Origin: Glycomyces sp. NRRL B-16210
GTDB taxonomy: Bacteria > Actinomycetota > Actinomycetes > Mycobacteriales > Micromonosporaceae
Direction: 5' to 3'
Assembly: GCF_000719515.1 (NCBI RefSeq)
Contig: NZ_JOGR01000001.1
Location: forward strand, 16,773 to 40,772
Length of the DNA stretch: 24,000 nucleotides
The stretch's first letter is position 1. Every line of letters starts with the position of its first letter. Positions 3,914 through 7,847 of the stretch are shown one piece after another. The position numbers and the translations under genes are program-made. The notes under the pieces were generated by a model that saw only the letters and a list, made by a program, of their open reading frames with translations, did not search any database and had not been told where the DNA came from.

Positions 3914-4261
3914 GTGTTCGGATTCGTCCAGGTGGAGAGCCAAGCCATTCGCAATGCGTCGCAGCAGATGCAGCAGTACGCCTCCCAGGCCGGGAGCCTC
4001 CCCGACAGCGCGGTGCAGGCCGCCGAACGCGCCGAGAGCGCCAACCGCGGCTTCATGTGCGCCGACGGCGCCAAGGACTTCGCCGACGACCTCAAGACCG
4101 ATATGCAAGAGCTCCAAGAACATCTGGACGACACCGCCGAGCTGTTGCAGGACATAGCCGACGACTGGGACGAGGCCGACGAGCACGGCGCGAGCGTGTT
4201 CAAGCCCATCGAGTCCGACCTCAGCGGATTCCGCGTCCCCACGATCCAAGGCGGGGTGTGA
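3914..4261 (+). CDS. Small helical protein S1 (~115 aa). EspC/PE-like partner of the downstream WXG protein; paralogous to 9494-9808 and 17539-17865(-).
   Basis: The ORF track gives 3899-4261. GTG 3914 sits 8 nt after GGAGG (3901-3905) and gives an N-terminus (MFGFVQVESQAIRNA) that aligns with MTWIDVDAEKLREA of S3. The C-terminal acidic motif IADDWDEADEHG resembles CADDMEAADEA (S2) and CADEHEGNDAA (S3). Confidence 0.7.
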   Translation: MFGFVQVESQAIRNASQQMQQYASQAGSLPDSAVQAAERAESANRGFMCADGAKDFADDLKTDMQELQEHLDDTAELLQDIADDWDEADEHGASVFKPIESDLSGFRVPTIQGGV

Positions 4262-4265
4262 CACC

Positions 4266-4796
4266 GTGCCCACCTTCCAGCAGTGCCTCGACGCCAACCC
4301 GACCGAGCTCATGACCCTCGGCGCCTCCATCGGATCGGCCGCCGCGCAGCTCACCCAGCTCGGCGCCTCCTACGGCACGACCGTCGCCGGCCTCGCCGCC
4401 TCCTGGCAGGGCGAGGACTACCAAGGACTCGTCCGATGGTCCGGCCAGGTCGCCGCCTTCATCGGCCGCAGCGACGCCGCGATGATCACCTGCGCCGGCG
4501 GACTCGGGACCACCGGCGCCGCCTTGATGGCCACCTGCACCGCCATGAAGGCCACCAAGCAGGCCGCCGAAGGCATCGGCTACAAGGTCCTGCCGACGCC
4601 GTTCGTGATCCTCGGCCCCAGCCAGTGGTCCCAGGTCTCCGCGGCCGGACCCGGCGCGCCCGCGGTCCTCGCCGCCTACCAGGCCGGAGCGGTCGCCTTC
4701 ACCACCGCCCTGGTCAGCATGTACACCGCGATCATCGCCCAGGACACGGCCGGGTACGCCGTCATCCGCACCGCCCTCGCCCTCAGCCCCTCCTGA
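4266..4796 (+). CDS. WXG-motif protein W1 (176 aa). Short member of the WXG100-like (T7SS-signal-type) family; candidate carrier or partner for the downstream toxins.
   Basis: GTG start 4 nt after the S1 stop. Contains ...LAASWQGEDYQGL... (W-x-G-x-D), preceded by the NPTELMTLGASIGSAAAQL helix that parallels NPGDLMKAAGAWMTLA in W2. Ala/Thr/Gly-rich hydrophobic C-terminal half. Confidence 0.7.
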   Translation: MPTFQQCLDANPTELMTLGASIGSAAAQLTQLGASYGTTVAGLAASWQGEDYQGLVRWSGQVAAFIGRSDAAMITCAGGLGTTGAALMATCTAMKATKQAAEGIGYKVLPTPFVILGPSQWSQVSAAGPGAPAVLAAYQAGAVAFTTALVSMYTAIIAQDTAGYAVIRTALALSPS

Positions 4797-4812
4797 CGGC
4801 CGGAGACGAGCG

Positions 4813-5388
4813 ATGCCGACGACCAACCACGGCGCCCTGCCACGAAGCGGCGAGCGCAGGCCGCAGAGCGCCAACCCGACCTCCGTCGCGGGCGCGTCCG
4901 ACTTCCGGCGCACCATCGGCAACCGCGTCCCCTACGGGCAGTCGCGCCTGGGGCAGCACGTCGCCGACATGCGCACGGTGCAGCCGACGAAGCCGCCGTC
5001 GATCGCGCCCACGGTGAAGAAGAACCTCGCCGCCGCCGAACTCAGCGACGGCACGATCATCGACGGCACCAGCGGCGGCGCACTGGGGTGCTCGGAGAAC
5101 GAGATCCAGTCGAAACTCGACGCGCTCAACCAGAGCCGGGCCCCAAGCGACCAGTTGACGATCAAGGAGCTCTACACCGAGCGTCAGCCGTGCTGCAAAT
5201 GCGAGAACCTCATGAAGACCAAGCATCCCGACGCGAAGGTCGACTGGTCCGTGGAATTCTTCGACACTCCGGACGCGCAGTCCCTCTCGCCCGAGCAGCT
5301 GACGGTCATGCGCTCGCTCAACAAGTTCGAACTCGGTGAACTCAAGCGGGTGAGCTATGCCTACCATGGGGTCCCGTTGCCGGGTTAG
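4813..5388 (+). CDS. Polymorphic-toxin-type nucleic-acid/nucleotide deaminase (CDA fold), with CxE in place of HxE (191 aa).
   Basis: GGAGA lies 6 nt upstream of ATG 4813. GCSENE and YTERQPCCKCE motifs are about 30 residues apart, matching zinc-site spacing. Clear paralogy to the 5808 ORF: AAAELSDGTIIDGTSGG vs AAAALGDGSVVTGRSRG, YTERQPCC, EFFDTP. Confidence 0.7.
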   Translation: MPTTNHGALPRSGERRPQSANPTSVAGASDFRRTIGNRVPYGQSRLGQHVADMRTVQPTKPPSIAPTVKKNLAAAELSDGTIIDGTSGGALGCSENEIQSKLDALNQSRAPSDQLTIKELYTERQPCCKCENLMKTKHPDAKVDWSVEFFDTPDAQSLSPEQLTVMRSLNKFELGELKRVSYAYHGVPLPG

Positions 5389-5430
5389 CACGCCCGGACG
5401 GGCACCCGACCGCGTGAGGAGGAACCGGCG

Positions 5431-5811: not shown

Positions 5812-6602
5812 GCTTCGGCCCCGACCTCCCCGGCATCGCGTTCGAACGGCGCCGCCGGGACTACCCCGGCGCCCCGAGCCCGATCGCCCGCAACTACGCC
5901 GCCGCCGCGCTCGGCGACGGCTCGGTCGTCACCGGGCGAAGCCGCGGGAGCCTCCTGCACGCCGAGATCGACGTGCTCCGCCAGGCCTCGGCCGTCGGGT
6001 CCCCCGTCGCGGCGATCTACACCGAGCGGCAGCCGTGCTGCGAGTGCGAGGCCGCCCTCGAAGCGGCCGGCGTCGCGCCCGACGCGATCACCTACTCCGC
6101 CGAGTTCTTCGACACGCCCGGCGAACCGACCGCCGAGGACGGCGCCGAACTGGCGCGGCTCAACCTCGGCGTGTTCGAGCACCTGCGGCAGATGATCCGC
6201 GAAGCCGAGGGCTCTCAACCACGCCCGGCCGGAGCGGACCCGGCCGCGGCGCTCGCGCGTTCGGTCGCGGGGCATATGGAACGGCACGGGCTGCGGGTCG
6301 CCGCAGAACCGGACCTCGGCGCCGAGCCCGGCGTCGAACTGGCCGTGGACGGCCTCGCCGACGGCGCGGGCGGCGTCCACGTCTCCTGGCACGTCGGCGC
6401 CGACCTCACCGCGCGCGTCCTCGACGCGGTGCACGGCGACCGGCTGGAGGACCCGGCGCTCACCGAAGCCGCCGCGATCAAGCAGCACCGGCTCGCCGGA
6501 CTCGCGGCGGTCCTCGACGAGGCGGGCATCGCCGCCGAACCGGTCACCGACGGCACCGCGCCCTACAGCCTCCACCTCCCCGTCCACACCGGTCCCCGGT
6601 GA
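5808..6602 (+). CDS. Deaminase domain (HAE...PCxxC) fused in-frame to an immunity-like domain (264 aa).
   Basis: GTG 5808 overlaps the TGA of the upstream gene (GTGA). LLHAEIDVL and IYTERQPCCECE motifs are present. Residues ~140-264 align with the free-standing 126-aa protein at 5431-5811. The ORF track shows a continuous ORF. Confidence 0.7.
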   Translation: MSFGPDLPGIAFERRRRDYPGAPSPIARNYAAAALGDGSVVTGRSRGSLLHAEIDVLRQASAVGSPVAAIYTERQPCCECEAALEAAGVAPDAITYSAEFFDTPGEPTAEDGAELARLNLGVFEHLRQMIREAEGSQPRPAGADPAAALARSVAGHMERHGLRVAAEPDLGAEPGVELAVDGLADGAGGVHVSWHVGADLTARVLDAVHGDRLEDPALTEAAAIKQHRLAGLAAVLDEAGIAAEPVTDGTAPYSLHLPVHTGPR

Positions 6603-6825
6603 AGCGCCCGCCGCGACTGGTTGCCGCGCATATATAGTCGCAACGACGAGTCATGTTCCCCCACCCCAGGAGCACTGATCCATGGCACCGATCCACACGC
6701 GACGGCAGGCACCCCGCGACGGTCGCGCCAGGACGCGGCAGCACCCGCCCGGCCCCGCCAGAGATGCAGCCGCCCGAGCCGCAGCCGCCCGCGCCGCGCT
6801 GGCCCTCTGAAGGTAAGGAGCAGCC

Positions 6826-7560
6826 GTGCCCGCAGGAAAACTCCCCCGAAAAGGCAACAAGAGCGGCTCAGCCGCCGAAGGCCCGGGCAGCGCGCCCCCG
6901 TCGTACCCGAGCGCCGACGATCAGCGCAGGCAGCTCATCTCCCAGTACCTCGAGAGCAAACCCAAGGGAGCCGACCCGGAGTTCACCCCCGAGGAACGCC
7001 GGGCCGCGGACGAGTTCCTGGCCCGGTCGGCCCGGAACGAGCCCGCCATCACCGACCGGATGCGCGACATCGCCGACGGCACCGGCGCGCGCCTGGAAGG
7101 CCTCGACTTCAGGCTGAAGGGGAAGAGCTCGTTCGACCGCAAGTTCAACGACGTGCTCGACGAACACGACGGCAACATCGACGCCGCCCGCGCCGACATG
7201 AAGGACGCCGTCCGCTACACGATGATCTTCGAAGAGGACAACTACGTCGACGGCGTGAGCCGGGCCGAGTCGATGATGAAGGACAAGGGGTTCGAGCCCG
7301 TAAAATGGAAGAACCTGTGGAACGGCGAGGGGTACAACGGCGTCAACTCGTTCTGGCGCGACCCCGAGACGGGCCAGGTGTTCGAGGCGCAGTTCCACAC
7401 GCAGAGCAGCTTCGACGTGAAGATGGCCGAGCACGAGGCCTACGAGGTCGCGCGGGACGGCGACGCCCCGGCGGCCCTCCAGCGAACGGCGACCGAGCTG
7501 GCCAACGAGGCGTTCGCGACGATCCCGAAGCCCAGCGGCTTCGAGTCTCTCGACAGATAG
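6826..7560 (+). CDS. RelA/SpoT-homologue synthetase-domain protein (toxSAS/Tas1-like nucleotide pyrophosphokinase toxin candidate, 244 aa).
   Basis: AAGGAG lies 5 nt upstream of GTG 6826. Motifs in RSH synthetase order: FRLKGKSSFDRK (RxKxxxSxxxK), DAVRYTMIF (DxxR), GYNGVNSFW and FEAQFHTQSSFDVKMAEHEAYE (ExQxxT...H...Y[KE]). Confidence 0.65.
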   Translation: MPAGKLPRKGNKSGSAAEGPGSAPPSYPSADDQRRQLISQYLESKPKGADPEFTPEERRAADEFLARSARNEPAITDRMRDIADGTGARLEGLDFRLKGKSSFDRKFNDVLDEHDGNIDAARADMKDAVRYTMIFEEDNYVDGVSRAESMMKDKGFEPVKWKNLWNGEGYNGVNSFWRDPETGQVFEAQFHTQSSFDVKMAEHEAYEVARDGDAPAALQRTATELANEAFATIPKPSGFESLDR

Positions 7561-7571
7561 CGGGTTGAGTC

Positions 7572-7847
7572 ATGGAGCAAGTCAAGTACTACATGGTGGT
7601 CACCGACGGATTCACGCGCGAACGCCCGCGGTCGGTCCTGCGCCGCTCCGTGCGCGAAGGCGTCGAGCGCGACGAGGTGTACAAGTTCTACCGCGACGGC
7701 CGCCACGGCTGGGAGTTCAGCGACTTCTTCGTCCGCGAGCTGTTCGGGCAGAACGACGACAAGGAGCACTTCGAAGTCACGCAGGACGAGGCGGAGGCGG
7801 CCATCGAGCGCCGCATCCGGGAACGCGAGAGCCGCGGCATCGGATGA
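7572..7847 (+). CDS. Small protein (91 aa). Candidate immunity/antitoxin for the RelA/SpoT-like protein.
   Basis: ORF track. ATG lies 11 nt after the toxin stop. A hairpin follows. No recognisable family motifs. Confidence 0.5.
   Translation: MEQVKYYMVVTDGFTRERPRSVLRRSVREGVERDEVYKFYRDGRHGWEFSDFFVRELFGQNDDKEHFEVTQDEAEAAIERRIRERESRGIG

Follow-up and report, generated by a model that had tools for sequence, protein, structure and literature searches.

The 24,000-nucleotide (nt) stretch of the Glycomyces sp. NRRL B-16210 genome analysed here (the window; positions count from its first letter) carries at 3914-7877 what reads as a polymorphic toxin/immunity locus with an EspC-like/WXG-like gene pair. 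The overall explanation that we favour, with a probability of roughly 0.7, is a polymorphic locus with split delivery: the toxins would leave the cell by type VII secretion as polypeptides separate from their carrier, and immunity proteins would protect the producer and its kin. The toxin domains belong to known families; the new elements are a short N-terminal leader common to toxins of different families and a conserved fusion of a toxin with an immunity-type domain.

All genes of the block lie on the plus strand. S1 (3914-4261) encodes a helical, EspC-like protein of 115 amino acids (aa), the partner of W1 (4266-4796), a WXG-type protein of 176 aa and the conserved carrier candidate. From the W1 stop codon to a YbaB-like gene extends a hypervariable cargo slot (4797-7950), which contains T1 (4813-5388; 191 aa, a predicted toxin of the XOO_2897 deaminase type), I1 (5431-5811; 126 aa, the putative immunity protein for T1), T2 (5808-6602; 264 aa, an XOO_2897 deaminase at aa ~26-135 followed by an I1-type domain at aa ~144-258), EAS (exported alarmone synthetase, 6826-7560; 244 aa, a predicted alarmone-synthetase toxin of RelA/SpoT fold), I3 (7572-7847; 91 aa, the putative immunity protein for EAS) and a G+C-rich hairpin (7856-7877) that closes the block. 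T2 and EAS match proteins of strain NRRL B-16210 with 100% identity. The spacing of these open reading frames (ORFs) from S1 to I3 is, in order, 4, 16, 42, -4 (an overlap), 223 and 11 nt. An earlier reading of the window, made from its letters alone (the sequence-only reading), had given this order with its coordinates, gaps and overlap, including a gap of about 220 nt before 6826, and all of these were recovered. It had also counted three toxin/immunity cassettes; T1/I1 and EAS/I3 stand as such, but T2 has its immunity domain fused and is followed by no separate gene.

How variable is the slot? In orthologous loci of related strains (numbered with the prefix L; genes called by tblastn and frame inspection), S1-W1 is found on the left and the YbaB-like gene on the right, and the block from the W1 stop codon to the YbaB-like gene differs in each relative examined. 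DNA homology to six relatives stops at 4792-4808, the W1 stop codon, and resumes at 7909-8004. The slot of L001 holds an XOO deaminase with an I1-type gene; that of L003 a YwqJ deaminase with an immunity gene, a SUKH-3 gene and an orphan I1-type gene; that of L004 an XOO deaminase with an I1-type gene, a homologue of the L003 YwqJ immunity gene and a 147-aa ORF; and that of L005 an Endonuclease_NS_2 toxin with an immunity gene. L006, from G. buryatensis, has a YwqJ toxin with its immunity gene, an I1-type gene, a T2-like fusion and three further I1-type genes. A T2-like fusion stands alone in L009, and the slot of L008 is empty. In L031 and L032, T1, I1 and T2 form a conserved trio as in the window, without EAS and I3. 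Cassette swapping between strains, which the sequence-only reading had suspected, is borne out by these differences. As these alignments show, the slot that begins at the W1 stop codon is recombination-prone, and strains fill it with different toxin genes and immunity genes.

Counting the slot together with the surroundings of S-W pairs, at least 11 cargo types occur: XOO_2897 deaminase, YwqJ deaminase, Endonuclease_NS_2, EndoU, TNT, glutamine deamidase, ADP-ribosyltransferase, GH-E nuclease, EAS and two unknown types. The cargo toxins are followed by immunity genes of SUKH and other types. EndoU, TNT, glutamine deamidase, ADP-ribosyltransferase and GH-E nuclease, together with unknown toxins, are the cargo of the paralogous S-W loci in G. 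buryatensis, G. luteolus and Glycomyces sp. NPDC046736. A module recurs on the flanks of paralogous S-W-toxin loci (L020, at 3766-8727 and 15579-18461, L018, L021 and L023); it consists of a DUF3686/DUF7902/AAA protein of ~1650 aa, a BRCT-like protein and a ClpB-like AAA+ ATPase of 867-960 aa.

What could connect such a range of toxins to one type of carrier? As far as can be read from their sequences, T1, T2 and EAS have neither a WXG/LXG domain nor a Sec signal. No WXG/LXG match was found for the three proteins in Pfam or NCBIfam, and their N-termini are short and non-helical. A leader of ~12-18 aa is common to 16 cargo toxins of 11 body families, namely T1, EAS and 14 toxins in related loci. 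Its pattern is roughly M-x(3-13)-L-P-[RST]-x-[GSN], followed by basic residues. In T1 the leader occupies aa 1-18 (MPTTNHGALPRSGERRP, with LPRSGERR at nt 4837-4860) and in EAS it reads MPAGKLPRKGN (LPRKGNK at nt 6841-6861). Corresponding N-termini are MTTGKHDGPLPSSSRRR in the YwqJ deaminase of L003, MTTGKHPGGLPRSSARR in the TNT toxin of L001, MPQTNRGSLPSSSARR in the Endonuclease_NS_2 toxin of L005, MAGGNLPRMSK in the EndoU toxin of L013 and MSGTLPRRGSR in the ADP-ribosyltransferase of L016. Past residue 30, homology among the leader-bearing cargo proteins is confined to the deaminase group and to the EAS pair. The codons of the leader differ synonymously (serine, for example, is AGC or TCG), which indicates that it is the peptide that is conserved, and that the similarity is no trace of recent recombination.

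The evidence for the leader is positional alignment at true N-termini, and the pattern, when searched as a loose regular expression, turns up in many spurious G+C-rich frames as well. In two loci (L003, 7553-7654; L005, 7560-7721) the YwqJ and Endonuclease_NS_2 toxins are given starts too far downstream in the public gene calls; their true starts, further upstream, encode the leader (MTTGKHDGPLPSSS... and MPQTNRGSLPSSS..., respectively). Subtypes of the leader roughly follow the clades of W proteins, an association that is suggestive only. The long leader, T-x-[KN]-[HR]...LP[RS]S, goes with W1 homologues of at least 70% identity, the short leader, M-x(3-4)-LP[RT]x[GSN], with W homologues of 58-62% identity, and a start of the form NRPFKHxPG with the TNT cargo of a W clade at ~54%.

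S1 and W1 form a conserved gene pair across the loci compared. S1 matches the Pfam family T7SS_ESX_EspC (6.9e-9; 36.5 bits against a cut-off of 23.5), and its orthologues have 114-119 aa. W1 carries the motif SWQGEDY, noticed before, at aa 46-52 (nt 4401-4421). A search of 5.8 billion proteins returned 38 homologues of W1, and all those with a named source are from Glycomyces; 34 of the 38 have a length of 173-176 aa and a common end residue. The C-terminal half of the family is nearly invariant, and the segment GYKVLPTPFVILGPSQW is invariant. In an AlphaFold2 model built from 28 sequences (pLDDT 93), W1 has three long helices: helices 13-45 and 50-103 meet at a turn formed by WQG (aa 47-49), and a small beta-hairpin leads to helix 118-173. 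The family gave no match in plasmids or in viral contigs, and hhalign found the W1 profile unrelated to a WXG100_2 protein of another actinomycete, L027. The sequence-only reading had contrasted the length of W1 with that of its paralogues, the 320-aa and 359-aa WXG-type proteins of the window. W1 is not a shortened copy of these, its identity to them being only 25-28%; judged by its homologues, W1 is a full-length protein family with no truncation. The split of carrier and toxin that the same reading had proposed is upheld by the uniform length of the W1 family and by the separate start of each toxin orthologue.

Fusions between the partners can occur in pairs, to judge from the gene models: W with toxin, toxin with immunity domain, and W with immunity domain. 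L022 (10001-10999) encodes a natural fusion of 332 aa between a W1-like domain and a YwqJ deaminase, followed by a SUKH-like gene. In L024 (589-1428; P0035), W1 is fused to an I1-type immunity domain in a protein of 279 aa that is found on 21 metagenome contigs. Because the L024 locus is simply without a toxin, this fusion may be a deletion scar, and a 'Rosetta-stone' reading of it is weakened for the same reason.

Two further observations concern the W1 gene. Synonymous divergence (dS) between W1 of the window (4266-4796) and its counterpart in L001 (7001-7531) is 0.20, while the neighbouring S1 gives 0.96; these are Nei-Gojobori values, a rough estimate in a genome where the G+C fraction at third codon positions (GC3) exceeds 0.9. 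The low value may reflect gene conversion among W1 copies or a constraint at the DNA level. In the long-read metagenome contig L032 (3350-3900), W1 is split over three frames, most likely through assembly indels and not through biology.

How might the leader act? It could dock the toxin non-covalently on an S1-W1 heterodimer or on the secretion ATPase, after which the complex would exit by way of a type VII secretion system (T7SS), while immunity proteins would neutralise the toxins in the producer and its kin. Docking of the leader on S1-W1 followed by type VII export has, in our estimate from these sequences, about an even chance of being correct. It is proposed more tentatively still, at somewhat worse than even odds, that a tag of ~12-18 aa would be enough to load any toxin domain onto an EspC-like/WXG-like pair for type VII export, with variants of the tag matched to carrier clades. 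A type VII route is consistent with the membership of S1 in the EspC family, with the WXG hairpin of W1, and with the recurrent neighbours of such loci, which are YbaB-like (EspL-like), EspC-like and PPE-like genes and genes for large WXG100-domain proteins. It also agrees with the covalent W1-like/toxin fusion of L022 and with the association of EAS with T7SS genes noted in PMC12691689. The same split layout is found in L027, where the unrelated WXG100_2 protein (a Pfam assignment) precedes an EAS homologue, and L021 adjoins an 810-aa FtsK/SpoIIIE ATPase with its best scores against EccCa/EssC models.

Several observations weigh against this route. The WXG100 score of W1 is sub-threshold (14.2 bits against 27.3), its WXG100 and ESAT-6 matches are weak, and it has no PPE match in the family searches. 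A Foldseek comparison of the W1 model with the PDB listed EsxA, PPE41 and PPE4 weakly (E > 0.04), with no match at E <= 0.001. A YxxxD/E export motif was seen neither in S1, which was inspected by eye, nor in W1. The leader is absent from the TNT toxins of L018 and L020, the YwqJ toxin of L006, the cargo of L021 and T2. Toxin cassettes are also found upstream of S1 on the opposite strand in L001, L008, L009 and L031, so that co-transcription with S1-W1 is not required. T7SS core genes (EccB/C/D, MycP) were not found within the 24-kb window, and the conserved upstream neighbours are of conjugation type, with a VirB4/TcpF-like ATPase and a CD3337/EF1877-type membrane protein.

Could the toxins exit by this adjacent, type IV-like machinery or by some other route, with S1-W1 merely sharing the neighbourhood? 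The two conjugation-type proteins, together with two small membrane proteins, are encoded divergently upstream in every orthologous locus, the Ecc genes are missing from the window, the opposite-strand cassettes lie between the conjugation-type cluster and S1, and one EAS group adjoins Trw conjugation genes (PMC12691689). However, paralogous S-W-toxin loci have no VirB4-like neighbour and adjoin YbaB-like, EspC-like and PPE-like genes, and in one case the EccCa/EssC-like ATPase of 810 aa; moreover, L022 joins a W1-like domain covalently to a toxin, and the variable slot begins exactly at the W1 stop codon. We consider exit by conjugation-type machinery improbable. Less probable again is the idea that the cassettes never leave the cell and serve inside it as toxin-antitoxin or phage-defence modules. 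The toxins are small and stand-alone and have their neutralisers adjacent, T2 resembles a fused toxin-antitoxin protein, and both toxins of RelA/SpoT fold (toxSAS) and such fused proteins are known in toxin-antitoxin and defence systems (in part PMC12691689). Yet TNT, GH-E, EndoU, glutamine deamidase and ADP-ribosyltransferase are families of secreted polymorphic toxins and come with SUKH-type immunity genes, a cytoplasmic toxin needs no shared N-terminal leader, and both the orphan immunity arrays and the WXG-fused variant fit interbacterial antagonism.

The arrangement of W1 and T1, which are 16 nt apart in different frames, invites a more trivial explanation, namely a single WXG-toxin gene broken by a frameshift or a sequencing error. 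A fused WXG-toxin does exist in L022, and W1 itself is broken across frames in L032. Nevertheless, the 34 homologues of 173-176 aa come from independent assemblies and end at the same residue, every T1 orthologue has its own methionine, ribosome-binding site (RBS) and leader, and the identical split occurs with nine other toxin types. The length of the W1 family and its low identity to the 320-aa and 359-aa proteins lead us to reject a gene broken by error, which has only a very slight chance of being correct, and the sequence-only reading, which had raised this alternative to its own proposal, was right to treat W1 and the ORF at 4813 as separate genes. Split delivery by type VII secretion remains our preferred explanation, and the cargo of the window can be considered in its light.

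T1 and T2 both exceed the gathering score of 27 of the Pfam model XOO_2897-deam (PF14440), T1 with 29.4 bits (9.1e-7) and T2 with 34.3 bits (2.6e-8), in agreement with the two deaminase-motif ORFs that the sequence-only reading had picked out. The zinc/catalytic motifs are C93-S-E95 and P126-C-C-K-C130 in T1, and H51-A-E53 and P76-C-C-E-C80 in T2. The C-S-E variant is also present in T1 orthologues, and one relative has H-S-E. Like the XOO_2897-like toxin deaminases (Iyer et al. 2011, PMC3239186), T1 and T2 keep [HC]xE and PCxxC, and homologous domains form the C-terminal end of RHS and PT-HINT toxins elsewhere. Unlike these, T1 has Cys for His in the first motif and T2 is fused to an immunity-type domain. 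The predicted action of T1 in a target cell is deamination of nucleic acid or nucleotides. An I1 gene follows the T1 orthologue in each case (L001, L004, L008, L031 and L032). Orphan I1 copies form arrays, with five I1-type sequences in G. buryatensis L006, one of them within the T2-like fusion, and orphan I1 homologues are found in strains without the corresponding toxin.

How did T2 arise? Its C-terminal half is homologous to I1 (blastp 4e-5); T2 is itself provided with an I1-type immunity domain, which accounts for the lack of a separate immunity gene. T1 and I1 are in the same frame, and a tblastn match of T2 runs over T1 and I1 across the stop codon (8e-18), so that T2 looks like a paralogous toxin-immunity pair that would have been fused by read-through. 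Full-length fusions of this type are found in six diverged versions, with 45-67% identity to the window copy. HAE and PCCxC are intact in five of the six (58-67% identity to the window copy), and the G. buryatensis copy, which sits within an array of immunity genes, has lost the zinc ligands. The AlphaFold2 model of T2 has two domains (pLDDT 82, pTM 0.76), and Foldseek assigns it a cytidine deaminase fold with a probability of 1.0 (best E 1.1e-3, with none <= 0.001). No precedent for a deaminase-immunity fusion of this type came up, no literature search having been aimed at one.

T2 might be kept as a self-neutralised pro-toxin or as an immunity module. If it were an exported pro-toxin, the tethered immunity domain would be removed on or after secretion; we regard this as unlikely, though by no means negligible, compared with an unexported immunity or decoy module. 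Retention of both motifs in five of the six fusions speaks for a pro-toxin, as do the L009 locus, where a T2-like fusion alone separates W1 from the YbaB-like gene, and a lower ratio of nonsynonymous to synonymous divergence (dN/dS) in the deaminase half (0.28-0.34) than in the immunity half (0.47-0.55), a comparison that is rough at such divergence. On the other side are the lack of a canonical leader in T2, the G. buryatensis copy without zinc ligands inside an immunity-gene array, and the fact that no processing site or protease was identified.

The ORF at 6826-7560 belongs, by homology, to the exported alarmone synthetase family. A phmmer comparison matches its residues 54-242 to PDB 8vx3 with E = 1.2e-27, the sequence of SaEAS from Streptomyces albidoflavus (PMC12691689), itself an exported alarmone synthetase. 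A second match, to the C-terminal part of the NCBIfam XopAD model, has an E-value of 1.8e-30. These matches establish the homology of what the sequence-only reading had called a RelA/SpoT-like enzyme, although Pfam, including RelA_SpoT, gave no match at E <= 1. Of the profile searches that this reading had proposed, those for deaminases and for T7SS domains (EspC, in S1) gave matches above the cut-off, but Pfam RelA_SpoT gave none and WXG100 only a sub-threshold one in W1. Residues D127, R130, K160, N174, E187 and Q189 of EAS align with D121, R124, K154, N169, E182 and Q184 of SaEAS, which are named for ATP binding and catalysis (PMC12691689). Its expected activity in a target cell is the transfer of pyrophosphate to ATP and/or GTP, which would yield (p)ppApp/(p)ppGpp and stop growth.

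A hydrophobic signal peptide was not found in EAS. Streptomyces EAS proteins of 'cluster B' likewise lack signal peptides and are encoded beside putative immunity genes and T7SS genes (PMC12691689); EAS of the window, with its small downstream ORF, fits this description, and this part of the finding was therefore already described in 2025. The match to SaEAS and the conserved active-site residues place it close to the known enzymes, but SaEAS has a Sec signal and no immunity gene, and AaEAS has a fused LXG domain, whereas EAS of the window is stand-alone with an LPRKG leader (PMC12691689). Glycomyces is not named in the text supplements of that paper.

I3 has no family match in Pfam or NCBIfam. 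An I3 homologue follows the EAS homologue in L029, and orphan copies occur in three G. buryatensis loci without an EAS gene (L007/L017, L015, and L016 with two copies). Such orphans, like those of I1, are the expected signature of an immunity gene. EAS was found only in the window among 16 genome loci. EAS and I3 form a strain-specific indel of 1.3 kb (6581-7908; blastn breakpoints against L031 and L032), which comprises the 223-nt spacer, EAS, I3 and the hairpin and is absent from L031. Its flanks show only an 11-nt direct repeat (6533-6543 and 7848-7858), which lies off the homology breakpoints and was for this reason treated as chance. L029, a very close relative with flanks 98.5% identical, has a different EAS and I3-like cassette (406-1439; 49% and 40% protein identity) inserted upstream of a gene for a 291-aa membrane protein, at a point equivalent to ~2720 of the window. 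This insertion site indicates that EAS cassettes occupy more than one site in the neighbourhood.

Expression signals were examined across the block. GGAGG lies 8 nt upstream of the GTG start of S1, and T1, I1 and EAS have GGAG, GAGGAGG and AAGGAG, respectively. The earlier statement that most ORFs have their own RBS is therefore accurate: the site is clear for these four genes, weak for W1 and I3, and missing for T2, whose start overlaps the I1 stop (GTGA). This overlap suggests that T2 is translationally coupled to I1. The hairpin, also noted previously, was confirmed, with a 9-bp G+C stem and a 4-nt loop; the 61-nt region has a folding energy of -25.1 kcal/mol (z = -2.76), which 2 of 200 shuffles equal. 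It is a possible terminator without a T tail, and a terminator scan reported nothing on the plus strand. A scan of the locus for sigma-70-type promoters found none, and an Rfam scan of 3600-8200 gave no meaningful match. ORFs on the minus strand of the block are spurious frames such as a 70% G+C genome usually has; the plus-strand genes have homologues.

Does base composition point to recent acquisition? Measured G+C fractions are 0.658 for S1, 0.725 for W1, 0.665 for T1, 0.693 for I1, 0.760 for T2, 0.671 for EAS and 0.659 for I3, with 0.70 for the whole window. The hand-counted values of the sequence-only reading were overstated when set against these per-gene figures (0.658-0.760). GC3 is 0.88-0.95 in every gene of the block, and this uniformity means that composition gives no sign of recent foreign origin, an idea that is ruled out as far as it was judged from G+C content. 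The related suggestion of a recent cassette that displaced an older one fails with it, as T1-I1-T2 is a conserved trio and EAS-I3 an indel.

The wider window contains further features of note. The conjugation-type cluster lies at 1-2478 on the minus strand, and in L010 at 754-6425; its ATPase is of the AAA_10 type, its CD3337/EF1877-family mobilome membrane protein has 644 aa, and the two small membrane proteins have 129 and 96 aa. An exact-protein look-up of the 129-aa upstream gene found no record. At 1221-1364 (minus strand) there are eight DnaA-box-like 9-mers (TTATCCACA), five of them perfect, where 0.76 would be expected; a count of eight was reached in none of 100 shuffles. The spacing of the five perfect copies (21, 21, 60 and 21 nt) is identical in every orthologous Glycomyces locus, and the flanking DNA is only 70-85% identical among these loci. 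The copies are located within the 5' end of the VirB4/TcpF-like gene or immediately upstream of it, and one gene model reads them as [GS]YPQ repeats with TAT and CCA, codons that one would expect to meet rarely at 70% G+C. As a group they might represent iterons, an origin or a regulator-binding array.

On the other side of the block, five YbaB/EbfC-like genes (7983-8684, 8745-9497, 12994-13299, 19790-20149 and 20146-20532) are interleaved over the 24 kb with EspC-like/WXG-like pairs at 9494-10774 (plus strand) and 16460-18027 (minus strand), an arrangement that resembles the EspL-type accessory genes of ESX loci. Proteins of 520 aa (10881-12443) and 567 aa (14681-16384) each have an internal WXG100-like segment and a Gly/Pro-rich region, and share a common C-terminal end (WGFINEDDDPYA and WGIGNEEEDPYA), possibly a conserved signal.

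In firmicutes, antibacterial type VII toxins have been studied well, and the toxin there is joined to an LXG domain. To our knowledge, those of non-mycobacterial actinomycetes are known almost solely from sequence surveys, and separate small toxins with a shared short leader are an arrangement not described for the group of bacteria to which Glycomyces belongs. If the proposed mechanism is true, the locus would provide the first adaptor-and-tag logic described for an actinobacterial T7SS, and with it a transferable export tag. If the leader is a loading signal, it would serve as a search key for new actinomycete toxins and immunity proteins (two leader-bearing cargo proteins have no known domain), and would offer a testable model of how type VII systems choose substrates without a WXG domain. 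The locus also holds the conserved deaminase-immunity fusion T2, and I3 is, by its position and distribution, a natural immunity candidate for an alarmone-synthetase toxin; the authors of the SaEAS study had no immunity protein when trying to purify the wild-type enzyme (PMC12691689).

Which known systems does the locus resemble? The LXG/WXG toxins of T7SS with Lap1/Lap2 or EsxB/C/D (PMC9600955, PMC10801868, PMC10653861; survey PMC3482391) also have small helical partner genes upstream, variable toxin domains, downstream and orphan immunity genes, and differences between strains. There, however, the toxin domain is covalently joined to the LXG/WXG domain, whereas the Glycomyces toxin is a separate protein of 150-250 aa with a leader of only 12-18 aa, and W1 is free of toxin except in L022; the hosts there are firmicutes, and here an actinomycete (T7SSa lineage). 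Read from its genes, the locus would work like LXG/WXG toxin systems with helpers, but it fails to show their defining fused delivery domain.

Mycobacteria offer two further parallels. Their PE/PPE and EspA/EspC pairs similarly combine an EspC-family helical protein of ~100 aa with a longer WXG-bearing helical protein, and the neighbouring pair S2-W2 of the window gives PPE matches; W1 differs in having none, with no YxxxD/E seen and no EspG-like chaperone or Ecc genes nearby. In the esxF-esxE-cpnT-ift operon of Mycobacterium tuberculosis (PMC7810871), a WXG100-type pair is followed by a toxin and then by its immunity gene, and TNT toxins fill the equivalent slot in the Glycomyces relatives L018 and L020. 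Unlike the cargo described here, CpnT is large and brings an N-terminal export/channel domain of its own, and its locus is not polymorphic; EsxE and EsxF have ~100 aa each, compared with 176 aa and a third long helix in W1. By analogy, this operon is the closest actinobacterial precedent for the gene order.

The MSE-ExT toxins of Streptococcus suis (PMC12558993) are likewise small, lack a large N-terminal delivery domain, and carry a short conserved N-terminal marker; they depend on small helical proteins for type VII export. That system is a T7SSb of a firmicute, with an unrelated marker, unrelated helpers and NAD+-targeting toxins, and its export was demonstrated, whereas the Glycomyces locus is read from sequence. 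By analogy, it is the closest functional precedent for the split delivery proposed here.

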